Source: an uncultured Armatimonadetes bacterium (GTDB lineage Bacteria > Armatimonadota > UBA5829 > DTJY01). Taken from it: 64,000 nucleotides of DNA. Position 1 is the stretch's first letter, and every line of letters starts with the position of its first letter. The stretch spans positions 4,256,001 to 4,320,000 of the forward strand of contig OY970325.1 of NCBI GenBank assembly GCA_963717145.1, given 5' to 3'. The notes under the pieces are model-generated. The model saw nothing but the letters and a program-made list of their open reading frames with translations, made no database searches and was not told the DNA's origin. A program made the translations under genes and the position numbers. Shown piece by piece: positions 3,382 through 18,018 of this stretch.

Positions 3382-4758
<1,377 letters not shown>

Positions 4759-4982
4759 TCAGAGCGGAGAGATTGTAAACCGACGGGCGAGAGGGGACGC
4801 GGGGAGGGGGAGAGTGGGGGAGTGGGAGTATGGGAGTGCGGGAGAGGGAACGGGAGTCCGTGAGCGGAATGGGGCGGGAGTACAACTCCCGCCCCAACGT
4901 CTTACCTATTCGCTACCTGCGGTCGGCGGAGTACTATCTGCGTCTGCGGTCTTCAATTCCGCATTCCACATTCCGCATTCGG

Positions 4983-7900
4983 CTATCTCTCCACTATCCC
5001 CTCCGGGCCGGAGAGGCGGATGATCGGGGTCCGGCTCGTGCCGTCGAACTCGAAGGACGAGATGCCCGTCACGATCACCGGATCGTTCTCCGCGAGAGCG
5101 CCGATGTCGATGCCCGCCGCGATCACCTTGATCGGGCCGCCGGGCGATCCATCATTGACGAAGAACTGATTCTCGCCGGGGGATTCGACTGTGCCGGCGA
5201 CCTGTATCAGCAGGCCGATGTTGTTCAGTCCCGAGCCGAGCGTCAGGCCCGGAGTCAGCGGATTGAAGTCATCGCCTCCGAGGTTCCGCCCCGGTACGTA
5301 GAGCCCCTTGGGGACGAGGGCGGGATTCGCGGGCGACTCCACAGTCGTCACCGGTTCGAGGATCGCCCTCTCGCCCACCGCATTGACGCCCATGATCCCG
5401 CCAACGGTGACGATCGCTCCCGGCCCGGGCCCTGAGTCGAGGACCAGGATGCCGGACGATCTGTCGCCCTCCTGGATGTAGTAGCTGTTGGCAAAGCTGG
5501 CCGTGACCACCTTGCTGATCAGCCCGACTGGAGTTGTGTCGGTCAGGGCCTTCGCCGCGGCTATCGTCAGCGATTCGGCTGCGAGTTGGATGCCATCGGA
5601 GGATGCCACATCGCTCCAAGCTCCGGCCCCGTTCTTCGCCTTGGCCGAGATGTAGTACGTCGTGCCGAGGCTCAGTCCGGGCTGCGGAATGGCGATGTTC
5701 GCATCGGCATTTGCATCGGCGGATGTCCATCCGACGATATCCACTCCGCCGGACGCTGTGCCAACCGCATACTGGTACTCCGCGATGCCCGAATCGGCGT
5801 CGGTCGCGTTCCAGCTTCCGTGAAGGGTCGAACTCGATCCGGTGTACTGACCGTCGTCGTTGACCACAGGCGCATCCGGAGCCGAGGAGTCATACTTGAA
5901 CGTGAAGATCGTCTCCCACTCATCCGCGAGGTTGCCGGCGTTGTCCTTAGCGCGTACTCGTAGATAGTATGTGCCGGTGCTGACTGCTGCGGGGTCGTAT
6001 GCCGCGTCGGTCACGAACGTCTCGGAGGTCGCCGATTCATCGGATCCGAAGTAGACGAGATATCCGGCGATCCCCGACTCGGCGTCCGATGCGCCGCTCC
6101 AGGTGAAGGCAGGATCCGATACAGCGGCCTGCCATTGGTCGTCGACAGCGCCGCCGGTCTCGACAGCGGAGGTCGGGTTCAGCGGAGGTGCGGTGTCGAA
6201 CTTGAACGGTCCGAGATCGAGAGTGCCGCTTGCGACCCCCTCACCATTGAAGCCCTTTACGTGCAGGTAGAAACTCCCGGCCGATCCGAGTATGAGGTCG
6301 CCCGAATTCCAGATCGGCTCAGCGCCGGTCCAGGTGTGCGTCGGGCTGCCGTCCCATTCATACGCATATTGGGACACAGTGCCCTGTCCGAATCCACCGA
6401 CCGCCGTGAAGCTGAAGTCGGGGGTCGCATACCACACGCCTGCCGATCGGTCGCAGGAGATACTTGGAGCAGCCGCGAGAGTCCACCTCGTTGCGGCGGC
6501 GGACGACAGGCTGTTCAGCGTGCCGTTGTATGACTTGGCATATCGGGTATACGGTGTGTTCGCCGCCAGACTGCCCTCGTCGATGGACACACCTGCGCCT
6601 GTGCCGTTCGAGACGGCTGCGGAAGCCTTGATCGTCTGGGCCGCATCGAGGATCCGGAAGCCCATCTCGTTGTTCGACGTATCCGTTACGCTCCAACGAA
6701 TGCTCGATGAAGAGAGAGCGGCCGGCGTCCCCATGGTCGGGACGGTCGGCGCTGATGCGTACATCGCGCAGTCGTCGAACCAGCCCGCCTGGTTGACTCG
6801 GTAGTGATATCCGTACGCCACCATGTTGAGACCGTAGGTCTGAGTGTCGAGCGTGCGCTCCACTGTGCTTACCAGGATGTCGTCAATATAGAACTTGACC
6901 TCGTTCCCGGCGCCGGTGTACGGCTGGAAGTCAATGGTGAACTTGTGCCACCCGACGACTCTGGCCTTGCTCGCCGCGCCCGGCCAGTACCATCCCGTGC
7001 ATCCCGCGCCACAGGCCTTGTAGTAGCCTGCGCTGTACGTGCTGAACGATCCCGGCGCGGCTGAGTATGTGCCAAGATAGTAGATCGCCTTGACACCGCC
7101 GCTTCCATCGAGGCATCTCACCTGGAGACCCTGGCGGCTGTTGTTGCTGGCCGAGGAATCGTAGAACCAGCTCTCGAACTTGGCCGCACCGAATCCGGGG
7201 CTGAACGAGTGGCCGAGAAGGCATCCCTGCGTCGAGACTCCGGAGTCAACCGACCTGATCGAGCCCGCGCCGGGGAAGCCACCGGGGTGGTTCGCTCCGC
7301 CGTCCCACACCAGGGGATTCGGTCCGGACATCGGGCTCTGGACGATGGCGCTCCAGAGAGCGCCGTTAATGCTTGCGAACCCATCCTGGAAGATGGCGAC
7401 AGTCCCCGGGAGAGTCCCCGCGGACGCGGTATTCGACGCGCCGGAGACGTTATTCGCGTTGTCGTAGGCCTTGACGAAGTAACTGTAGCTCGTATTCTGG
7501 GTGAGGCCGTTGTCCTGGTAGGTAGTTGCGGTAGTCCTGCCCACCTCGGCGCTGTTGCGGTATATGATGTAGCCCGCGAGCCCTGCGCCGCCGGTGTCAG
7601 TTGAGGCCGTCCACGCCAGATTGATCTGCGAAGGCGAGATGCCGGTCGCGCTGAGTCCCGAGGGATTCGACGGCGCAGTGGCGTCGGTCGAGACGAGGTT
7701 GAAGTCCTTGGTCGTCGTCGCTCCGGCAGTAACGGCCGCCGTGCCGCTCGTCGGATCGAATCCGGCCTTCGAAACGTTGAGAGTATACGTGGCCGGATCC
7801 AGATTGTTGAACGTATAGACGCCCGAGCTGTTGGTTGTCGTTGATGGCCCGCCGGAGATCGCGACCGAGGCTCCGGAGAGTGCCTGGCTATTCGCGGCAT

Positions 7901-9425
7901 TGCGGACCGTCCCCGTGATGTTCCCTTGTGCGGCGGCGACGGTGATGGTCCAGGTGACCTCGCCTCCAAACCAGGTCACGCCTTCCTGAACCGGCCGGTA
8001 CTTCTCGACGTAGACTCCCGGAGTACTGGGCGCTTTGATTACGAAGGAGAACCGTCCGACCTGCCCGGTCGTCACGGCGCTCTGGTCAACAGCGGTCGGC
8101 CTGGTGCAGCCGATCCAGTTCCCCGACTGGAAGAACGGGCTGCAGCGGTCCTGCGGGCCCGAGGTGCCGAGATTCGTCGCGGCATGACCCCAGGTCGCCG
8201 TGCCGTCATTCACATACTCGGCCCAAACGACTGCGGTCGATCCAGCCGTCATGGACGCAGGATACGACTGCGCGTTGTAGTGAGCGGCATAGGATGGTGG
8301 AGGCGGAGCGCCCGCGACCACCTGGATGTAGTAGCCCCAGTCCCATCCACCGCCCGGATCCCAGTGAGACCCGCCGCAGTGGCAGTTATTGGCGTCATTG
8401 TGGCCCAGAATGCCCGGGGCGCAACTGCGATGCGCCTTCGGGATGCCCCATCTGTTGCACATATCGCGGGTGAGGAGCCCCGACGCATTGTAGAGGCTGG
8501 TCGGATGACTCGAGGAAGCAGCATATCCCTCGTGCTCGATGCCCAGTGAACGGCTGTTGATGCAGCCGACATGCCAGGCTCGGTAGTTCTCGTCCACGCA
8601 TTGCCAGACGCCGCCGGCTTCCGACACGACATAGTGGGCGGAAACCTGTGAGCTGCAGTTCCTGAACCACGATCTAGCGCCGGCAGCGGATCCCTCGATT
8701 GTATGGACAATAACGGTGTCTTTGGCTGTGTAATACGCGCTGTAGTTGCAGCTCGCGGCGGGGTACCAGGTGGCCCCCGAATACCCGGCCGCGGCTTTGA
8801 TCGCGGCCGGCATCAGCTTCTCGAAGTCGATCGAGCCGATGTTCTGAGCCGAGAATACGAAACTTTCCCCGGCGGCATTGGTGTAGTCAAGGCCTGCCTG
8901 GAGCTTCTGGAAGATCTCTCCCGCGAAGAACTTGCTGTTCTCCTCGTCGAGGCCGGCATACTTGATGACAGGTTCGAGCCAGGCTTCGAGCCCCTTTGCG
9001 CGATCGATCTTCATTCTTGCCGCATATGAACTGATTACGGCGGCGGCGGCCTTGATGTTGAGTGCCGGGTCGATCTGAAGAGCCTCCGTGGAGGAACTCA
9101 TCAGCGATGCCCCCGCGATGAGTGAATTGCCGCCCATCTTATTGTCACGGAGGGCCATGACTCCGTAGCCGCCCTCTATCGTCGGAGCGCCATAGCGGTT
9201 CTCGAACGCGCTGCCGAAGTAGCCGAGGGTAAGAAGGAGCGGGAGCGGGACGTTGTATTCCTTGGCCGCCGAGTCGAACACCGGCATAAGTGACGTCGTC
9301 CATGCCGTGGCTTTGGGATTCTTCATGGACGCAAAATCAGGCAATCCAGACTGATTGTCCTGTGCCGCTGCTCCTCCTATGAAGACAAACAGCAGCACCG
9401 GGATGAGTAGACGTGGAAATCTCAT
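4983..9425 (-). CDS. Secreted multidomain N-acetylmuramoyl-L-alanine amidase (Amidase_2, carboxypeptidase-regulatory-like, FN3/Ig-like, C-terminal shared domain)
   Basis: Signal peptide; IVHTIEG, SAHYVV, AWHVG, GIEHEG, HWDPG amidase motifs; FN3 repeat (APSNPSGL...YSYFVKAYDNANN). Confidence 0.85.
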   Translation of the reverse strand: MRFPRLLIPVLLFVFIGGAAAQDNQSGLPDFASMKNPKATAWTTSLMPVFDSAAKEYNVPLPLLLTLGYFGSAFENRYGAPTIEGGYGVMALRDNKMGGNSLIAGASLMSSSTEALQIDPALNIKAAAAVISSYAARMKIDRAKGLEAWLEPVIKYAGLDEENSKFFAGEIFQKLQAGLDYTNAAGESFVFSAQNIGSIDFEKLMPAAIKAAAGYSGATWYPAASCNYSAYYTAKDTVIVHTIEGSAAGARSWFRNCSSQVSAHYVVSEAGGVWQCVDENYRAWHVGCINSRSLGIEHEGYAASSSHPTSLYNASGLLTRDMCNRWGIPKAHRSCAPGILGHNDANNCHCGGSHWDPGGGWDWGYYIQVVAGAPPPPSYAAHYNAQSYPASMTAGSTAVVWAEYVNDGTATWGHAATNLGTSGPQDRCSPFFQSGNWIGCTRPTAVDQSAVTTGQVGRFSFVIKAPSTPGVYVEKYRPVQEGVTWFGGEVTWTITVAAAQGNITGTVRNAANSQALSGASVAISGGPSTTTNSSGVYTFNNLDPATYTLNVSKAGFDPTSGTAAVTAGATTTKDFNLVSTDATAPSNPSGLSATGISPSQINLAWTASTDTGGAGLAGYIIYRNSAEVGRTTATTYQDNGLTQNTSYSYFVKAYDNANNVSGASNTASAGTLPGTVAIFQDGFASINGALWSAIVQSPMSGPNPLVWDGGANHPGGFPGAGSIRSVDSGVSTQGCLLGHSFSPGFGAAKFESWFYDSSASNNSRQGLQVRCLDGSGGVKAIYYLGTYSAAPGSFSTYSAGYYKACGAGCTGWYWPGAASKARVVGWHKFTIDFQPYTGAGNEVKFYIDDILVSTVERTLDTQTYGLNMVAYGYHYRVNQAGWFDDCAMYASAPTVPTMGTPAALSSSSIRWSVTDTSNNEMGFRILDAAQTIKASAAVSNGTGAGVSIDEGSLAANTPYTRYAKSYNGTLNSLSSAAATRWTLAAAPSISCDRSAGVWYATPDFSFTAVGGFGQGTVSQYAYEWDGSPTHTWTGAEPIWNSGDLILGSAGSFYLHVKGFNGEGVASGTLDLGPFKFDTAPPLNPTSAVETGGAVDDQWQAAVSDPAFTWSGASDAESGIAGYLVYFGSDESATSETFVTDAAYDPAAVSTGTYYLRVRAKDNAGNLADEWETIFTFKYDSSAPDAPVVNDDGQYTGSSSTLHGSWNATDADSGIAEYQYAVGTASGGVDIVGWTSADANADANIAIPQPGLSLGTTYYISAKAKNGAGAWSDVASSDGIQLAAESLTIAAAKALTDTTPVGLISKVVTASFANSYYIQEGDRSSGILVLDSGPGPGAIVTVGGIMGVNAVGERAILEPVTTVESPANPALVPKGLYVPGRNLGGDDFNPLTPGLTLGSGLNNIGLLIQVAGTVESPGENQFFVNDGSPGGPIKVIAAGIDIGALAENDPVIVTGISSFEFDGTSRTPIIRLSGPEGIVER

Positions 9426-9753
9426 CAGATGTGCACCTCCCCAGGATTACGAAGCGCCGATATGTGGCAGACAAACGCAGGGTTACTTTACGTTCTATTA
9501 TACACCCATTCTGCGCCGCTGAGGTATCTCCTGTTCGGAAAAGAAAAATCAGGTATTTCTACCAGGTAGTGCATGCGATCGCCGAACTGATCTGCGGCTG
9601 TTATGAAAGCCCTTGCCTTTTCTTTACACTCCTGTTACAATTGCGACGACCTTGCGTGGGATAGCTACCCATGCAGGCAATATAGCCCTATGGGCTCCGG
9701 GCTCAGGAAACATAGGATACTGCGCCCGGCCGAGGAAGCAAGGAGGAAATCGT

Positions 9754-10436
9754 ATGAAGTCAGCTTTTCGGATTGCGCTGGTCGTGGCATTCGTGCTCAT
9801 CGTCCAGCAGATGGTGCTCGGCAGCAGCATCATTACAATGCCGACCGCGGATGTCGCCCCGCAGGGACTGGTGAATGTGGCCGCTTATGCGGTCAACTTC
9901 AATGACCTGCCCGACCCGCCCTTGGCGCCGTCAGGGATGAATGTCTTCATCGCGTACGGCGCCATCGCGAAGAACCTGGAGTTGGAAGCCAACATCTATG
10001 ATCAGAAGGATGGCTTCGACACTCTCACTTTCTTCAACCTGACCTACAAGGTGGTGGAGCAGACCGCCACAATGCCGCAGATCTCAGTCGGAATCAAGAA
10101 CGTGCTGGGCGAGGACCTCGGCAACGGCGACGTCGCACCCAACGACGACGCGACGTACTTCATCACAGCGGTAAAGGTGATCACGGGCCCGGCGCCGGCG
10201 AGCCCTTCAAGCCGGTCGTTCGACTTCATGTCGGGCTCGGCAACAACCTTCACAATGGGATCTTCGGCGGAGTCCAGGCGATGCTCACTCCTCAGATCGG
10301 CCTGGCGCTGCTGAATGACGCCGAGAGCACGCTGATCTCGGGCGCCTACAAGCCGAGTGCGAACTCGCCGACCTTCAAGGCCGGCACGCTCGGAGATCAC
10401 ACCTGGTTCGGCATCGACTACGACGTGAAATTCTGA
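9754..10436 (+). CDS. Putative outer-membrane beta-barrel protein, apparent 1-nt frameshift near 10190
   Basis: RBS AGGAGG, signal peptide, IITMPTAD. Continues in the -1 frame as VRLHVGLG...GIFGGVQ...WFGIDYDVKF* with a terminal Phe. Confidence 0.6.
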
Positions 10437-10467
10437 GGCGTCGGTCCTCAGTTGTCGGTATGAACAG

Positions 10468-10502
10468 AAGGGCCTCCGGTCACACGACCGGAGGCCCTTT
10501 TT
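10468..10502 (+). terminator. Rho-independent terminator
   Basis: aagggcctccggtc-acac-gaccggaggccctt followed by T tract. Confidence 0.85.
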
Positions 10503-10610
10503 CACGTCTGATACCCAAACAACACCACAAACTCATCTTCTTAAGGTATAATGAGCATGGCAATCCCTCGTCGGGGATGCTTTCCGAGAGAGATCAAGCA
10601 GGTGTTCCGC

Positions 10611-13160
10611 ATGAAGTACGCACGAATTATCCTGGCAGCCATGGTCATACTCTGTCTGCCCGTCATAGCTCAGTCGTCGCCTCCACTGCTGTATGACAAC
10701 TTCGACGCCGCGACCGTCGGGACGATCCCGGCCGGATGGAGGGTCGCCAAGACCGTCGCCGGCACGAGCGCCCTCGTGCAGATCGGCACGCCCGCGGGCA
10801 ACAAGTGGCTGGTCATCCATGACGACAACGGCGCGGGGATCATCACCAGCAATACGGTCTCACGGACGGCGTCATTCGCGGCGGTGACGGGCTCGGATCG
10901 CTGCACGGCGCAGTTCGAAGTGATGCTCTCTCAGATCACCGCCGGATTCGGCATGCGGCTCACCAACGGCGACGTCGCGACAACTCTCTCCAACTGCGCG
11001 ACCTCGATCACCTTCGAGGGCAATATCCCATATGCGCCCAACGGGATTCCTGGCGCAATCTCATATCAGACCCAGACCAGCACCTACGCACGCTCGCCGC
11101 TTCTGACGACCTACGCCGCCGACACATGGTACACCGTACGAGTGGAGGCGAACGTCGGCAGCAAGATGTACAAGCTCTTCTTCGGTCCCAGGGGAGGCAC
11201 GCTGGCAGAGATCACCCCGACCGGTGGCGTCCAGTTCCTCGTAGCAGTCTCAGGGTCGCAGGTCAGCCAGATAGCCAACATCTCGTTCTTCACCTCCGTC
11301 AAGGATGGCGACGGACCGGGCGACATGACGATCGACAACGTGGAGGTCGTCCTCGGCGACCCGGAGCCGACCACACTGGTGAACACGATCGCGATGGCCC
11401 GGCTGCTCGACCGCAGTACCAAGATCAGCCTTACGGACAAGCTCGTGACTGCCGGCACCTCGAACGGAGTCTTCTATATCGAAGATGACGGCCCCGGGGT
11501 CAAGCGCGCCGCGGGCATCCGTGTACGATCCGGAACGATCGTGCAAGAGAACGATAAGGTCGATGTCATCGGCCGGATCGCCAATACCTCAGAGGCCAGA
11601 GGAACGTGGCATACGGGTGAGCGGGAGATCATCGCCGAGTCGGTATCGGTCCGGAGCACCGGAAACACGCCCCTGGAACCGTTCCTCATGCGCTGCTCGG
11701 ATGTCGGCGGCGGCTGGTATGGCCCGATGGAGATCACCATCAATGGCTCGGAGCCCGCAATCAAGGCGGTCTGGCCGTTCAACGCCTGGGGTGACAGCGG
11801 CGTTTCATCATGGAACTCCACTTATGGCCCGCTGAACAATACCGGCCTCCTCGTGACGGTGATCGGCAAGGTCACCGATCCGACGGTCTACGACATGTAC
11901 GGCACGAACTATGATTTCTACATCGACGATGGCAGCCTGACGAACGACGGATGGTTCGCCACTGCCACGCCCGAGGACGAAGCATTCAAGCCAAACGGTC
12001 TCCGCGTCCGAATTACCGATCCCTCCATACTAGATGACGTGCTTCCCATCTACCATGGCGATCATGTGAAGATCACCGGCATCGTGGGAGCAATCTCATG
12101 CGAAGACCTCGGCAGGGCGACCGTCCGCAACGTCAGGGTCGTTCGCCCAAGGAAGCCGGAGGACATCGAGATCATCCGCCGGCAGGAGCGATACGTCAAG
12201 TTCGACAAGCAGGGCAACTGCCTCGTCGGTGGCAAGCCGTTCTTCCCGATCGGCATATTCATCTATGCGTGGGATTCGCTCGTCCGGCCGGAGGTCCTCG
12301 CCAAGCAGTTCAACACGGTGATCTATGCCGTCACGCCCGATCAGCTCGACAGCCTGCAGGCGGACGGGCTGATGACGATCCCGTATGCCACGGAGGAGTG
12401 GATCGCGCACAAGGACCATCCCGCGATCCTGGCATGGTACCTCGACGACGAGCCGGAGGGTCACGGGCTTACTCCCGCGTATGAGCGCGACTACTATGAG
12501 CGAACGCGCGCCGCCGATCCCACGAGGCCCGCTGGAACGGCGCACTTCTTGTATGATTCTCTGTGGAACTACCGGTTCTGCGACGACTACACGATGTCGG
12601 ACGTCTACCCGCTTCACCGGATGAACATCTGGTCGATGACCGATCACATCAACCGCCTACACCAGATCCACGGGCAGAACTTCCCGGTGTGGCCGGCGAT
12701 CCAGTCATTCGGCGGCACGGAGGGCTACGGCATCCCCTCTCCGGCCGAGGAGCGCGCGATGACCTACATGGCGCTGGCGGCCAACTCGAAGGCGATCCTG
12801 TACTTCTCGTACTATCCGTCGCTCACGGAAACATGGGCTGAGGTCGGGGTGCTCGTGCAAGAACTCAAGGCGCTGACACCATTCTACTGCCTGCCTTCCA
12901 TCGAAGGCGGTCATGGCAATACGAATAGCTGGATAATGACGCGACTGATACGAAACGGAGCGTCCGGTCTGCTCATCACCGTCAATTACTCGTACTCAGC
13001 CCAGACAGCGACGATCACTCTGCCCGCGGGTGCGCCTTCGACGCTCAATCTGCCGTTGGAAGGCGGAAGCATCCCTGTCACAGGCGGCTCGTTCACGGCG
13101 GACTACACGCCGCTCCAGGTCCACGTCTACCAGTGGGGCCCGATCCCGGCGATGCCGTAG
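10611..13160 (+). CDS. Secreted multidomain protein with C-terminal TIM-barrel glycoside-hydrolase-like domain
   Basis: Signal peptide MKYARIIL; GKPFFPIG, HPAILAWYLDDEP, DVYP motifs; central shared domain (FYIEDD, LNNTGLLV, FYIDDGS). Confidence 0.7.
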   Translation: MKYARIILAAMVILCLPVIAQSSPPLLYDNFDAATVGTIPAGWRVAKTVAGTSALVQIGTPAGNKWLVIHDDNGAGIITSNTVSRTASFAAVTGSDRCTAQFEVMLSQITAGFGMRLTNGDVATTLSNCATSITFEGNIPYAPNGIPGAISYQTQTSTYARSPLLTTYAADTWYTVRVEANVGSKMYKLFFGPRGGTLAEITPTGGVQFLVAVSGSQVSQIANISFFTSVKDGDGPGDMTIDNVEVVLGDPEPTTLVNTIAMARLLDRSTKISLTDKLVTAGTSNGVFYIEDDGPGVKRAAGIRVRSGTIVQENDKVDVIGRIANTSEARGTWHTGEREIIAESVSVRSTGNTPLEPFLMRCSDVGGGWYGPMEITINGSEPAIKAVWPFNAWGDSGVSSWNSTYGPLNNTGLLVTVIGKVTDPTVYDMYGTNYDFYIDDGSLTNDGWFATATPEDEAFKPNGLRVRITDPSILDDVLPIYHGDHVKITGIVGAISCEDLGRATVRNVRVVRPRKPEDIEIIRRQERYVKFDKQGNCLVGGKPFFPIGIFIYAWDSLVRPEVLAKQFNTVIYAVTPDQLDSLQADGLMTIPYATEEWIAHKDHPAILAWYLDDEPEGHGLTPAYERDYYERTRAADPTRPAGTAHFLYDSLWNYRFCDDYTMSDVYPLHRMNIWSMTDHINRLHQIHGQNFPVWPAIQSFGGTEGYGIPSPAEERAMTYMALAANSKAILYFSYYPSLTETWAEVGVLVQELKALTPFYCLPSIEGGHGNTNSWIMTRLIRNGASGLLITVNYSYSAQTATITLPAGAPSTLNLPLEGGSIPVTGGSFTADYTPLQVHVYQWGPIPAMP

Positions 13161-13181: not shown

Positions 13182-13290
13182 CCCCTCCTTACGAAGGAGG
13201 GGCCGGCCAGCAGGCCGGGGGAGGTTCGCGTGCCGATACCCTGGCAGAAACCCCCTCGGCCCAGAGGCCGGTCCCCCTTCGTAAGGGGGA
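13182..13290. repeat. REP-like palindrome pair at convergent gene ends
   Basis: cccctccttacgaaggagggg ... cccccttcgtaaggggg. Confidence 0.6.
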
Positions 13291-13303
13291 CATCCCGGAT
13301 CGC

Positions 13304-16300
13304 TTATACCGACAGCCCCACGAAGAGCCGGGCGTCGATGCTGGTGAGCGGATCGACCTCTCCATTCGCGGCGGCATCGGCGAAGACGATGCCCGGGTAC
13401 TTCGCCCTCATCGCCCGATCGAGGACGTTGAACCCCTTCGGCTCGGCGTACTCCCGGACTCCGTATGCCCCGCGAAGGGTTTCCAGGGCGATCTCTCCGA
13501 GGCCTTCGCGGGCGCTCGGGACGAGAGCGAACATCTCTTCGGATGTGAGACCTTCCGCCAGGCCATGCCGGATCGGGATGCCGTCCTGCGTGCCGGTCGA
13601 TCCTACGAGCCTGACCAGCCAGCGCATGTTCCCCCGCGCGCGGCTCTTCACCGCGAGCATCTGAGGCCCGAGATCGCAGCTATCGAAGTCGGTCCAGGCC
13701 CCCAGTGCTTCCTCGAGCGCGGCCGAGTACTTCTCCCACTCCTTCGGGTCGCCGCTCTCCGGCATCGCGGGCCGATGGAGGCTCTCCCCGACAAATGGGC
13801 TGAGTGACGCTCCGGACTCCTTGGCTACACGGAGGCCGAGGTCGAGCAGCTTATCGGAGGTTTGGAGCATCCGGTCGATTCCGTCCCTCTCAAGGATATC
13901 GGTTAGTGTGTCGATGATCGACTCGCGGGTGACGTATCCCTCCGGGATGGCGATCTCCACGCCGGCGATCTGCTCGATCTCTCCTAGATCGGTCATGCTC
14001 AGGGCGGCCGAGCCCCCACAGCGCCTCGAAGCGAGGGAAGATCAGCTTCGCCAGGGATGGGTCTCGGCGCAGGTGTCCGGCGATCGAGAGCTTCTCCCCG
14101 GCCTCCTTCTGGCCTGCCTCGGTGAGCGGTAGGAACACCGCAGCATGGTCGCCGTCGAAGTCTCCGTTCACCAGCATGCACGCCAGCGGGTGAAGCCTGA
14201 TCGTGCGGTCGCCGCTTCGTACCGGATGGAACGCCAGGAGCGCGGTCGGCATGAACGTCGGCGAGCGGTTGACAAGCACCCACGACCGGGCCATGGTCGC
14301 GTCCAGGGTCTGAGTCGCTCGTTCGGACCGAGCCTCTACCTCCGACATGTCCATTTCGCGGGCGACGAGCGGTCCGAAGATCGCCCATGCGATATCATCC
14401 GCCAAGCCGACCTGATCGGTCCGCAGACCGACTCCCGGCGAGAGCACGGTTCGCCCGCTGAAGAGGATCGGCTGGTGGAACCGCAGGTTCTCCGGCACGA
14501 GCAGCAGATCGAAGTAAGCCCTGACCGCCGACTCGAGATCGCCGTACGACCTCTGCCTGAGGCTTTCGGGAGCGCCGCTTGAGATCATGCGGGCTATCTT
14601 CGTGTTCGCCTCGACGAGCGTCGCCCATGTAGGAGGGGGTTTCCGGTCTACCCCGACCGTGGGCGCACCGACCTCCTCCAGCATCCTCTCGGGCAGCCAC
14701 GGATGCGGGACCGGGCATGCCAAGTTGAGGACTTCCCCTTCAGGAGAAGCGAACCGGAATGCCAGTCTGCCATCCTCCAGTTGAGTATGGATGCCGCCCG
14801 CTGCCAGACGCTCGGCGACCTCAGTGAAATCCGGGGTGGGGGGACCGGCCTGTTCGATCGGGCCGGACACCACTCGTTCCGCGAACGACTCCGCTCCCTC
14901 GCGTTCAGTGGACCGCGTGTTGAACTGCTCACGGATGTTCTCGAATGCGCCGACATCGCGCATGGCATAGTACTCATTCTCGCCCTGCCTGCACACTGGT
15001 TCGCCGGGCCTGGTTCCGATGAAGAGCTTGCTGTGGGCGAGGTGGACTGTCTTGCCCCAGTAGACATAGCCGACTGTGCTCGGACGATCGAGCTTCCGGC
15101 CGCCTTTGCCAAGCGTCAGAGTCTCCATCCCGCTCTCGGGCAGACCGGCCTTCACGAGCCGTTCCCTGATCTCCTCAGCCTTAGGGGCGTGGAAAGGCGG
15201 GGCAATGAACGGCGTCCCTTCCGCACGAGCGATCCGGCCGGCGACCGCCTCCCGCACGACGCCGAAGATCAGCCGCGTGTGGAGCGCGATGAAGTTGTAG
15301 ACCAGTTCGACCGGCGTGCCGTCGGGCAGATGAGGCATCCCGTCGTCGGGGACGATGCGGCTGATGCAGCCCTTCGCGCCATGCCGGTTGGTGATCTTGT
15401 CGCCGGGCTCGAGCGGCCTGGGGTAGCCGAGACGCTTCGCCGCCGATTCGCTGATGAGGATGCCGTCCTCGAAGGTATCGCGGCCCCAGGAGACGAACGC
15501 GGTGAGGAGGTTTCGCCCGCACCAGAATCCCGGTGCGCTGAACTCGTTGCCGGTCTGAACGAGCGCAGGCTCGGGTCCGGAGCGACCACCCACTGGCGCA
15601 TCATGTTCACGCCCATGAGGATCCGGGTCGAATCATCGTGCTCCAGGAACGGGACCAGAGAGGCGACCATACCCAGAGCGGCTTCCGGCCGATCATCTAC
15701 GATAACCAGTCTGCTATCTCGGATCTCCGCGCCGACCGCGACGGAGAGCACGCGCCCGACGTTGGGGCCTTCCGGCGTCTCGAACGGGCAGACGCGCCCG
15801 AAGTGCGAGGGAGTGATCAGCTTCTCCCGAGTTGGGATGAGCAGCCTGCGGGAGTGGGTCACGGTCGCCAGGCGGTCGGTCTTGTCGAGCCACTGACCGA
15901 TCCCATCCACGGCTTCGGCGACCCAGGTGTCGAGGGGGAGCCACGATCTCATCAGCGCCTGGTCGAAGGTGACGTCCTTTGGGGCCTCGCCAAGGCGCTC
16001 GCCGACGTAGTCGTAGAGCTGTTCGCCGACGCACTTGATATCGGCGGTGTCCAGGTACTCGTTCGACGCGACCGGCAGCACGATCATATGCCCATCGCGG
16101 ATCTGAAAGATGCCCCATTCATCCGGGCGAAGGATCTCATACTCCATCTCGGCATCGCCAACGGTGACCTCCAGCCGGCATGTGTACTCGTCACATTCGG
16201 CCTGGTAGCCGGAGAGCGGCAGGCGGTCAGCCAGCAACTCAGGCAGGCGCTCGTTGATAAACCGGTCATAGGATTCCCTATGCCAGGGTGTAGCAATGTT

Positions 16301-16312
16301 CAATGTCATCAT
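13304..16312 (-). CDS. Miniaturised single-chain RNA polymerase beta-beta' fusion (~1000 aa), split by two 1-nt indels (~15574, ~14008)
   Basis: RpoB motifs in order: THSRR, SHFGRVCPFETPEGPNVG, SLVPFLEHDDSTRILMGVNMMRQ, FEDGILISE, GDKITNRHGAKG, MPHLPDGTPVELV, VGYVYWGKTVHL. Then RpoC motifs: SGRTV, VLVNRSPT, LHPLAC..NGDFDGD, KSRARG, EGL..AREGLGEIALET, AAANGEVDPL. Confidence 0.85.
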
Positions 16313-16887
16313 GATTCCTCCCATTCGCGTTCGAGGTTTCTCCATTCGCGAGCGAGACGCTTTCTGGCATAATGCAGGCGCGATTTGACCGTTCCCTCCG
16401 GCACGCCGAGCGCCTCGGCGACCTCCTGGATCTCCATCTCGAACTCGTGGACCAGCCGAAGCACCTCCCGCTTGTCGGCGGGAAGCTCCTCCACCAGCGC
16501 TCGAAAGAGCCTGTTCCGCTGGGCCAACTCGACCGCTTCTTCCGGACGAAGCGCGTCGGCCTCGTAGTCATGCTCTTCCGCAGAGAATTCCAGGGGCGAT
16601 TCCCTCCTGCGGCGGACGGTTCGGAGGTAGTTCAGCGCCGTGTTCGTGGCAATGCGCAGGATCCAGCCGTTGAGCGACCCTCGTCCGTCCCACTGATCGG
16701 CGTGCGTCCACACTCTCAGCAGGACCTCCTGGGTCAGGTCGCGGGCGGCGTCCGAGTCACGGATGATGTCGCGGAGTCGGAGGGTGATCGCCCTCTCGTA
16801 TCGTGCGGCAAGCGCATCGAACGCCTCGGGGTCACTCCCGGCGATCCGTGACATCAGTTCCGCATCGGACAGATCGTGCATAGCCAT
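16309..16887 (-). CDS. ECF-type RNA polymerase sigma factor
   Basis: Region 2 (DLTQEVLLRVW, WILRIATN) and region 4 (EVAEALGVPEGTVKSRLHYAR). Stop overlaps the next ATG (ATGA). Confidence 0.93.
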   Translation of the reverse strand: MAMHDLSDAELMSRIAGSDPEAFDALAARYERAITLRLRDIIRDSDAARDLTQEVLLRVWTHADQWDGRGSLNGWILRIATNTALNYLRTVRRRRESPLEFSAEEHDYEADALRPEEAVELAQRNRLFRALVEELPADKREVLRLVHEFEMEIQEVAEALGVPEGTVKSRLHYARKRLAREWRNLEREWEES

Positions 16888-16910
16888 GCCTCAAACGTCT
16901 CCCACTGCCA

Positions 16911-16938
16911 ATGACACCGGGGAGCGGGCGGGGGTTCA
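16911..16938 (-). promoter_or_regulatory. Candidate ECF-type promoter
   Basis: tGAAC-N18-GTCa just upstream of the sigma gene; resembles general ECF promoter consensus. Confidence 0.35.
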
Positions 16939-17054: not shown

Positions 17055-17759
17055 TTAGTCAGCTATGTCAGCCGGTCTGATCGAGCTGAACCTTGATTCA
17101 TCTTGAAGCATTCTGCCGAACGCCTGCATAAAGGTCTTGATACTCTGCACGACTGGCTTATCGTACTCCGTCAGTTCCTCTCTGACCCGTTTGGAAAGAG
17201 AGGAGTGTGGTTTGTAGAGAATATCGTGTTCGATCTCGCGGTAACGGTCAAGAATCCAGGGCACTACCTGGATCTCACAGACACACTGCAGTCCGAATCT
17301 GGGCGGAATTGGAACGCAATACTGAAGCTGATCGACCTCATCCACGTAGGAGCTATAGGGCTTGTTCCCACGGGCCGGTTTATGATCCTCAGTGCAGGAA
17401 GGATATGCCTTCTTGATAACATCATGCACATTCTTCAAGTAGGAGTTTGGGCAGACCTGTACCTTCACTCCCGCCATATCTGTCAAGGAGCCAAACGTGT
17501 AATCATCTAGTCTTTCAGGGTCGAAGAAGTTGCCTTCCTGCCGCTGCTGGAGCTTGGCAGACGCGCTGTCGAATGACTTGACTCTGCCGACAATCTGGAT
17601 GCGTTCAAAGGGCAAGAGCTGCGACCGCAGCCCAAGCAATCTATACTCCAAGGTGGCCTTGACTATGTCAACAGCATTCGCATACATACTGACGTTCGCT
17701 TGGTATTCCATCAGCAGCCTGTTCTGCACCAAGGTTGAAGTATCATCGGCTGTCAACAT
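17055..17759 (-). CDS. RelA/SpoT-like (small alarmone synthetase-like) nucleotidyltransferase, divergent
   Basis: GRVKSFDSASAK, TDMAGVK, CEIQ, EHDILYK; visibly lower GC than flanks. Confidence 0.72.
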   Translation of the reverse strand: MLTADDTSTLVQNRLLMEYQANVSMYANAVDIVKATLEYRLLGLRSQLLPFERIQIVGRVKSFDSASAKLQQRQEGNFFDPERLDDYTFGSLTDMAGVKVQVCPNSYLKNVHDVIKKAYPSCTEDHKPARGNKPYSSYVDEVDQLQYCVPIPPRFGLQCVCEIQVVPWILDRYREIEHDILYKPHSSLSKRVREELTEYDKPVVQSIKTFMQAFGRMLQDESRFSSIRPADIAD

Positions 17760-17763
17760 GCGA

Positions 17764-18018
17764 CTAGGTAGCTTCCGTTAGCAGTTTGCCAAGTTCATTC
17801 TGGAGGGTCAGGGAAGGCGGTCTGTTGAAGTAGAACTCCCAACCATGTTTCCGCTTGGGTGCGAGAACCATGTCCGCGAGCTTGTCTGGATGATCCTCGA
17901 CGTACTCCAAACTGAAGCATTTCATGGTGACGCGGTTGACGAAGACATCCCTGTCGAAGAGGTAGCGGTACCCCTGCTGCTCAAGAAAACGTATAGACTC
18001 GCGTGTTCTCGGATCCAT
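17764..18018 (-). CDS. Small hypothetical protein (candidate antitoxin/partner)
   Basis: 84 aa, RBS GGAGG, ends 4 nt before the RelA/SpoT-like gene. Confidence 0.65.
   Translation of the reverse strand: MDPRTRESIRFLEQQGYRYLFDRDVFVNRVTMKCFSLEYVEDHPDKLADMVLAPKRKHGWEFYFNRPPSLTLQNELGKLLTEAT

Follow-up and report, generated by a model that had tools for sequence, protein, structure and literature searches.

A putative sigma-paired, single-chain mini RNA polymerase encoded on the chromosome of an uncultured Armatimonadetes bacterium and in other bacterial phyla

Background

Does a bacterium with canonical rpoB and rpoC genes encode, elsewhere on its chromosome, a second and much smaller RNA polymerase (RNAP) and, if so, what would direct this enzyme to DNA? 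The question is raised by a locus of an uncultured Armatimonadetes bacterium that lies in a stretch of 64,000 nucleotides (nt) (assembly GCA_963717145.1, contig OY970325.1, positions 4,256,001 to 4,320,000; hereinafter, the window, whose own numbering is used below). The original prediction for this locus, made from the nucleotide sequence alone, was a miniature single-chain beta-beta' RNAP paralog, with RpoB core motifs followed by RpoC core motifs, encoded in three overlapping open reading frames (ORFs) that are joined via two 1-nt indels. As judged by sequence comparison and structure prediction, this mini polymerase is a pruned fusion of the bacterial beta and beta' subunits. We further consider it probable that positions 16938..13304 of the window (minus strand) constitute a self-contained module consisting of an extracytoplasmic function (ECF)-type promoter, an ECF-type sigma factor and the translationally coupled mini polymerase of ~1,000 amino acids (aa), which would work with that sigma factor.

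One gene in three reading frames

The mini polymerase gene and its parts are as follows.

16345..15269, minus strand: ORF 1, 358 aa, with a match to Pfam Rpb2_3 (3.4e-10)
15593..13890, minus strand: ORF 2, 567 aa, with matches to Pfam Rpb2_6 (1.4e-30, residues 57-190) and Rpb1_2 (6.2e-15, residues 437-499)
13996..13304, minus strand: ORF 3, 230 aa, with no Pfam match
15573..16312, minus strand: segment 1 (first frame), beta protrusion (beta1) without the lobe, then the fork region; its ATG overlaps the sigma stop codon
14011..15572, minus strand: segment 2 (second frame), beta barrel and hybrid-binding region, beta C-terminal region, beta' clamp helices, switch 2 and beta' barrel
13304..14008, minus strand: segment 3 (first frame again), funnel-like region, F-loop, bridge helix and a short C-terminal tail
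15404..15369, minus strand: beta motif GDKITNRHGAKG, in the beta barrel / hybrid-binding region of segment 2
14168..14148, minus strand: NGDFDGD, in the beta' barrel of segment 2

The ORFs belong to one gene of ~1,000 aa that runs across three frames (16312..13304, minus strand), from the ATG at 16312 to the TAA stop codon at 13306..13304. As the original prediction had it, they combine across the two indels into a single protein: in a tblastn comparison with P0001, an intact homolog of 1018 aa that is 80% identical, the region is colinear in three pieces in frames -1/-3/-1, with 83%, 81% and 84% identity for segments 1, 2 and 3, respectively. Because Rpb2_6 and Rpb1_2 both reside in ORF 2, the beta-to-beta' junction is inside one ORF, in agreement with the earlier claim that it falls within the continuous frame 13890..15593. 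The positions previously assigned to NGDFDGD and GDKITNRHGAKG proved exact on re-reading. The latter motif, along with FED, HTRL and KTVHL, which are also found in the window copy, had been put forward as counterparts of the catalytic beta residues, and all these stretches indeed align with the corresponding beta segments of a solved RNAP. The family profile matches the solved RNAP with E 1e-62 to 1e-68 for beta and ~1e-48 for beta'; at the level of sequence comparison, a chance resemblance to RNAP is excluded. The gene was described as lying outside an rpoBC context, and it does: canonical rpoB and rpoC are present as a separate copy ~1.8 Mb away in the same 5.37-Mb single-contig genome.

Domain anatomy of the mini polymerase

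Structure prediction, which had been suggested as a check on the fold, yielded a confident model for P0001 (predicted local distance difference test score (pLDDT) 90.1, predicted template modeling score (pTM) 0.86) that resembles both beta and beta'. A Foldseek search with this model retrieved the beta chain 8ras_C (8.1e-24) and the beta' chain 6p18_D (2.3e-19), and both barrels are predicted to sit in one confidently placed architecture like that of the solved enzymes. To map the retained parts, the family alignment A1 was used as the hhalign query against the canonical beta and beta' subunits from a genome of the same taxonomic family.

On the beta side, A1 columns 103-534 align with residues 435-1313 of canonical beta (E 1.6e-37). 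The retained blocks include the fork and rifampicin-region block, the 'FLE..D.NR' block, the barrel and the C-terminal block; three long stretches are skipped, the flap among them. In line with the absence of a flap counterpart, residues 293 to 301 of P0001 bridge residues 797 to 933 of beta in 8i23_C. The N-terminal domain was considered as a candidate for a new anchor of sigma region 4, and this possibility was ruled out: folded alone, the N-terminal 150 aa (pLDDT 90.3) best match 3mlq_A (Z 10.3) and 4kbj_A (Z 9.5), with the next nine structure matches all to second-largest polymerase subunits, so that the domain is an ordinary beta1 protrusion without the lobe. Foldseek alone gave no match for this domain at E 0.001 or better.

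On the beta' side, A1 columns 511-973 align with residues 316-878 of canonical beta' (E 2.9e-35), covering the clamp helices, switch 2, the barrel, the funnel region, the F-loop and the bridge helix; the stretch matched by phmmer likewise extends to the F-loop and bridge helix of canonical beta'. The clamp-helix segment corresponds to A1 columns ~571-620, and a profile stretch (558-814) aligns with beta' 267-562; the structural model has a pair of long predicted helices (577-594 and 599-620). The first 315 residues of beta' and the rudder segment are absent. Past the bridge helix, the mini polymerase has only ~45 residues compared to 536 in canonical beta', which leaves no room for a trigger loop or a jaw.

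D736, G737, D738 and R699 do not vary among 40 family sequences, and each of D734, K306, K314, D283 and P701 is shared by at least 90% of them. The window copy retains the whole set: the catalytic Asp triad, both lysines, the acidic residue of FED, and NRxP. Given the beta-type barrel with its two lysines (GDK...HG.KG) and FED, the beta'-type barrel with the metal-binding Asp triad of DFDGD and with NRxP, and the predicted fold, the protein can be assigned to the two-barrel (multisubunit-type) RNAP superfamily.

Relationship to known polymerases

The mini polymerase shares with canonical RpoB and RpoC the block order, the catalytic motifs, the fold and clear sequence homology over ~880 alignable columns, and the cellular beta and beta' subunits are its closest relatives by sequence. 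The affinity is to the bacterial rather than the archaeal type (E 1.2e-40 for the best bacterial beta vs 1e-27 for archaeal Rpo2). The canonical subunits, however, comprise ~2,750 aa in two chains, whereas the mini polymerase consists of ~1,000 aa in one chain, without the lobe, the flap, the N-terminal third of beta', the rudder segment and the region after the bridge helix (trigger loop, jaw). The scores with the equivalog models for canonical rpoB and rpoC are far from the required values (165.7 vs 801.15 bits for TIGR02013 and 76.6 vs 963.5 bits for TIGR02386).

The full-length beta::beta' fusions of the Helicobacter/Wolbachia type (NCBIfam NF011417 and NF007172) are the same kind of single polypeptide with the same order of parts. 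The respective models, however, span 2,839-2,890 positions and describe the only polymerase of the cell, whereas the mini polymerase is a third of that size and is a second copy; its scores with these models (168.8 vs 4,632 bits and 121.4 vs 5,372 bits, respectively) are well short of the cut-offs.

By design, the closest analog, and one of almost the same size, is Orf6 (K2ORF6p) of the yeast cytoplasmic plasmid pGKL2, to which the mini polymerase is likened here by published description. Orf6 is a 982-aa Rpb2::Rpb1 fusion that keeps the two barrels, the bridge helix, the protrusion, the fork, the hybrid-binding region and switch 3, with the trigger loop, lid and rudder undetectable (PMC2919709; PMC6211774), and the fusion is said to be 'not known to be present in any other' polymerase (PMC6211774). 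Orf6 differs from the mini polymerase in being eukaryotic, plasmid-borne and of viral type in the authors' tree. Its partners are a second, small subunit (K2ORF7p) and a short conserved sequence located upstream, and it has no sigma factor.

YonO from the Bacillus prophage SPbeta is another single-chain enzyme of the two-barrel kind (~100 kDa) (PMC5467207; PMC2919709); it is phage-encoded and has only 'very distant homology' to the multisubunit enzymes. The mini polymerase, unlike YonO, is readily aligned to beta and beta', resides on the chromosome and comes with a sigma factor. Seven Bacillus phage records are among the weak matches to phage records. Salmonella phage Arash and Vibrio phages D69, D148 and D181 encode fused bacterial-type beta-beta' proteins with 30-33% identity over 28-35% of the query; the fused enzymes of the Arash type and YonO are more distant.

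A family spread over several phyla

Intact homologs of ~1000 aa, which had been named as something to look for in other genomes, turned out to be numerous. The best 120 longer homologs are all 1001-1106 aa in size (990-1,100 aa for the family overall) and are annotated as 'hypothetical' or by domain names only; 112 of them contain PF04565, PF00562 and PF00623, and the other 8 contain PF00562 and PF00623 without PF04565. In contigs representing one genome per species, there are at least 206 confirmed loci, with record titles that span at least seven phyla: Chloroflexota, Planctomycetota, Poribacteria, Latescibacterota, Armatimonadota, Hydrogenedentota and, in the case of a Moanabacter, Verrucomicrobiota. 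Within the phylum of the window organism, 19 of the 301 sampled genomes (the window genome included) carry the family, scattered across families; outside the window genome, no internal stop codons are found in this sample, the full-length matches are each in one open frame and the partial ones are at contig ends.

The N-terminal 145 aa match 187 clusters at E 0.001 or better among 1.84 billion representatives, and 148 of the 150 matches listed start within the first 40 residues of the target; no new domain architecture was seen in this search. In a FastTree phylogeny of 68 members, the sequences group largely by phylum, with 8 label changes (the minimum being 5 and the mean for shuffled labels 29.5) and a few placements across phyla. 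The ratio of nonsynonymous to synonymous substitution rates (dN/dS), also suggested as a check, indicates purifying selection on the entire ~1,000 aa (0.17-0.20, all three segments alike).

NCBIfam contains no model for the mini polymerase family, and none of the families in the PADLOC collection of defense-system models matches it. The enzyme had not been recognized as previously described, and a full-text literature search found no description of the family, within a coverage that excludes supplements and Iyer and Aravind 2012; the main text of Casas-Pastor et al. 2021 does not mention Rpb1, Rpb2, RpoB or RpoC. Taken together, the homologs, the selection, the predicted fold and the separate rpoBC support the original reading of the protein as a stripped-down, cellular-derived second RNAP.

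An ECF-type sigma factor and promoter upstream of the mini polymerase

The following features are located upstream of the mini polymerase gene.

16309..16887, minus strand: ECF-type sigma-70 family factor, 192 aa, intact, directly upstream of the mini polymerase gene
16934..16938, minus strand: -35-like element TGAAC, upstream of the sigma gene
16913..16918, minus strand: -10-like element GGTGTC, with the sigma start codon 25 nt downstream
16899..16906, minus strand: downstream element AGTGGGAG (family consensus AGTrGrAG, 7 nt after GTGTC)

The link to a sigma factor and the promoter are additions to the original prediction. The sigma protein matches Sigma70_r2 (6.3e-13), Sigma70_r4_2 (1.3e-15) and Sigma70_ECF (4.6e-05) in Pfam, with no match to region 1 or 3, and scores 107.2 bits with NCBIfam TIGR02937 (cut-off 42.9); no specific ECF subgroup model reaches its cut-off. 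There are also weak matches to PADLOC models labeled CARF3--CARF (E 5.5e-4 to 6.6e-3). The sigma stop codon and the polymerase start codon overlap in the sequence ATGA (16312-16309).

In a sample of 80 of the at least 206 confirmed loci, 76 gave a match to the sigma factor, and the remaining four have almost no upstream DNA. The cognate sigma gene is upstream on the same strand, with 38-79% protein identity, in 75 of these 76 loci; the exception (L045) is a polymerase gene without its own sigma gene, beside an IS200-type transposase (L045:4107-4538). The two genes abut or overlap in 22 of 47 loci, and in 36 of the 47 the gap does not exceed 11 nt. The association does not extend to other genes: by tblastn, each of the eight other neighbors in the window is found in 0 or 1 of 84 loci, and when 1,129 ORFs taken from 80 loci were clustered all against all, no third gene common to the phyla was detected, with only the sigma gene shared. 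The 12-locus clusters in this analysis reflect synteny within Poribacteria, and one cluster consists of antisense ORFs. In some lineages, the module is interrupted: two ABC (ATP-binding cassette)-exporter genes lie between a promoter copy and the sigma gene at L057:3281-7230, and an S9 peptidase gene separates the sigma and polymerase genes at L070:5236-7641; like the one at L045, these insertions are specific to their lineages.

Upstream of the sigma gene, the sequence GAAC-N16-GTGTC is present in 71 of 77 loci, with a spacer of exactly 16 nt in 68 of the 71. The consensus is TGAACyTTT...cGGTGTC, followed 7 nt on by AGTrGrAG; AGTGGGAG, the window version of the latter element, likely combines the start-site region with a ribosome-binding site. 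An AAC-type -35 element and a GTC-type -10 element separated by ~16 nt are typical of ECF promoters. The operon thus shares with autoregulated ECF sigma operons a two-domain sigma factor (regions 2 and 4) and such a promoter in front of the sigma factor's own gene. In contrast to these operons, the sigma gene is partnered with a polymerase gene in place of one for an anti-sigma factor, and searches of six genomes found no further promoter copies.

A position-weight matrix of 51 nt built from 66 unique promoters ranks the operon promoter as the top site in the window genome (36.3 bits), with the next site at 17.9 bits and a maximum of 14.4 bits in the reversed-genome control; allowing the spacer to vary by one base revealed no further copies in this genome. 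Five other complete genomes yielded 15 exact matches to the core, compared to 12 in the control, and only three of the 15, all operon promoters, score high, the other 12 reaching at most 6.8 bits; this search required an exact core, so that diverged targets would be missed. In the IMG/VR collection, the promoter scan gave 35 single matches, the best at 32.5 bits, none of them like the true copies (47-63 bits). At locus L034, where ~0.8 kb separates the sigma gene from the polymerase gene, both are preceded by a promoter copy, and the one directly in front of the polymerase gene scores 46.8 bits.

Two kinds of repeated core match deserve mention. An insertion sequence (IS)-like repeat of ~935 bp, present in 10 copies with 99.6-100% identity (G000:C1, e.g. 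3600110-3601050), holds TGAAC-N15-GGTGTC without the downstream element; we judge this to be a chance match amplified by copy number, although it could be a real target. In G042, the genome of locus L012, identical copies at C1:244168 and C1:1476025 match the promoter core, with full-matrix scores of 5.1 and 3.2 bits, and are probably a repeated element. At the other end of the operon, there is one more element.

13244..13294, strand not assigned: palindromic element of ~50 bp, resembling repetitive extragenic palindromic (REP) elements, just past the polymerase stop codon

This palindrome has 83 BLAST matches genome-wide and reaches a depth of up to ~2,400 in contigs of four soil-metagenome runs; it could possibly serve as a terminator hairpin, one that is not specific to the operon.

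How the module could work

In cellular enzymes, sigma region 2 docks mainly on the beta' clamp helices, and the beta flap is the usual anchor of sigma region 4. By sequence, the mini polymerase appears to combine one holoenzyme feature, the clamp helices, with the absence of the other, the flap with its flap-tip helix. Under the model that we favor, the sigma factor would dock on the retained clamp helices and direct the mini polymerase to the promoter, resulting in promoter-specific, DNA-dependent RNA synthesis; as the promoter is the operon's own, this would amount to positive autoregulation, and the host polymerase carrying the same sigma factor may prime expression.

Several observations weigh against this model. 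With the flap deleted, sigma region 4 is left without a known anchor, yet the -35/-10 spacing is as strict as a host-core holoenzyme needs, so the promoter may be read by the host enzyme alone. The lack of space for a trigger loop means that catalytic competence is not guaranteed. A second convincing copy of the promoter did not turn up in the window genome or in the five other complete genomes, which leaves the presumed holoenzyme of sigma and mini polymerase without a known target but itself. Finally, the window copy is broken twice as assembled. A complex prediction for residues 1-800 of the L010 polymerase with its own sigma factor, both supplied as alignments, gave a score of 0.22 against a mark of 0.32 and was counted neither way.

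The main alternative, which we regard as unlikely, is that the sigma factor serves the host core only and switches the operon on, the mini polymerase being a sigma-free effector, for example, an RNA-primed, RNA-templated or non-specific polymerase. Such an arrangement would account for the missing flap and for a promoter of ordinary ECF appearance whose spacing is fixed at 16 nt; it also agrees with the ready recognition of the sigma factor by the general ECF model TIGR02937 and with the fact that the promoter copies found drive only the sigma and polymerase genes, as is common where an ECF sigma factor is paired with an effector gene. It is harder to reconcile with the survival of the clamp helices in a protein shorn of about two thirds of beta and beta', with an adjacency and a start/stop overlap that are tighter than usual for a regulator and its target, and with the absence of any other function-defining domain in the protein.

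Frame breaks: assembly errors or decay

The two frame breaks in the window copy are located as follows.

15572..15575, minus strand: frame break 1, where one base is lacking at CCC 15575-15573 or adjacent to it
14009..14010, minus strand: frame break 2, one base extra

It is improbable, in our estimate, that the window copy is a genuine recent pseudogene with two real frameshifts, the family being functional elsewhere. Besides the breaks themselves, this possibility could draw on the difference between the window copy and its relatives at frame break 2 and on the intact state of other long ORFs in the window, such as the one of 1480 aa at 4983..9425, which implies that assembly errors are not everywhere. 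Against it speaks the state of the essential genes in the same assembly. The canonical rpoB/rpoC of the window genome is in pieces on at least seven separate ORFs, with different Rpb2/Rpb1 pieces in 7 of the 10 ORFs scanned there, whereas in a complete genome of the same taxonomic family both genes are unbroken (1354 aa and 1414 aa). Because essential rpoB and rpoC cannot be so broken, this assembly contains indel errors, and because these genes are fragmented far more than the mini polymerase gene, the breaks in the latter are no sign of decay.

The sequence of the gene itself points in the same direction. The correct frames of the window copy are free of stop codons, there is no drop in identity to P0001 past either break, nor is there a rise in dN/dS (0.174, 0.173 and 0.200 against the nearest ortholog for segments 1, 2 and 3), and the sigma gene and the promoter are both intact. 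Reads were checked in four soil-metagenome runs, which contain relatives with 5-9% of the sampled words and do not represent the source sample. At 14009/14010, every covering contig of a relative that is listed has one base fewer (two in X1, two in X2 and one in X3), and dropping the extra base restores the match to P0001; an alternative placement of this break in the G5 run at 14017-14013 was ruled out since tblastn and the relatives' contigs both put it at 14009/14010. None of the listed contig pieces of the relatives from these runs bridges frame break 1. Overall, both frameshifts are likely to be assembly errors, so that the gene is probably intact in the organism.

The split canonical rpoB/rpoC of the window genome lies in L009 (G000:C1:2462000-2476000), spread over many ORFs (minus strand, 3657-12163). 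One of these, L009:7452-8870, contains the end of Rpb2_6, the whole of Rpb2_7 and the start of Rpb1_1, with rpoB running into rpoC in one frame; this is either a real fusion or a further indel artifact.

Sequestration and phage origin

Anti-sigma genes are usually located directly downstream of an ECF sigma gene. The mini polymerase gene sits in exactly this position, translationally coupled to the sigma gene, and its product keeps the sigma-docking clamp helices, so it might be imagined as a mimic of the core that sequesters its sigma factor, with a vestigial polymerase activity. We consider this very improbable: the catalytic Asp, Lys and Arg residues, along with the entire active-site architecture, show little or no variation between phyla, and sequestration does not need ~1,000 aa under purifying selection.

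A polymerase of a phage or mobile element residing in a prophage or island is the least credible reading, to which we assign next to no weight, because the patchy presence among relatives (5 of 41 and 19 of 301 genomes) and the matches to phage Arash (30% identity over 35% of the query) are outweighed by the finding that none of 45 phage records covers at least 80% of the protein, that none of 79 IMG/VR loci has a full-length family member, that no phage genes recur beside the module across loci (the original prediction, too, had noted no phage neighbors), that the tree is largely by phylum and that flanking genes are common to twelve Poribacteria loci.

Neighboring genes in the window

Three further genes lie close to the module.

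17055-17759, minus strand: 234-aa protein with a weak match to the RelA/SpoT nucleotidyltransferase (26.0 bits, cut-off 27)
17764-18018, minus strand: 84-aa ORF directly upstream of the gene for the 234-aa protein, in a stretch of lower G+C content (0.567)
10551-13160, plus strand: 869-aa protein with a signal-peptide-like start and weak similarity to the triosephosphate isomerase (TIM) barrel of glycoside hydrolase family 2 (E 0.013); it converges on the polymerase gene

The 234-aa and 84-aa proteins could be a small alarmone-synthetase toxin-antitoxin pair; this pair was found beside the module in none of 84 loci from other genomes.

Implications

A bolder extension of the model, which we offer tentatively and consider doubtful, is that the polymerase, its private sigma factor and its private promoter form an orthogonal, self-priming system that has remained nearly unchanged over at least seven phyla; its only detectable genomic target is itself, and its true templates may not carry promoters of the class identified here. 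If this is the case, the 'autogene' loop would serve as a bistable switch or a polymerase on stand-by, and an enzyme devoid of the flap, the jaw, the trigger loop and the beta' N-terminus would be blind to many of the factors and inhibitors that act on these parts of the host enzyme.

Bacteria are taught to have one RNAP core; an additional core, encoded on the chromosome as a single chain and only a third as large, would revise this view for the lineages concerned. The family would represent a natural experiment on how little of beta and beta' suffices for sigma-directed transcription, with a bearing on the evolution of two-barrel polymerases, and would offer a compact set of sigma factor, promoter and polymerase for orthogonal gene expression.

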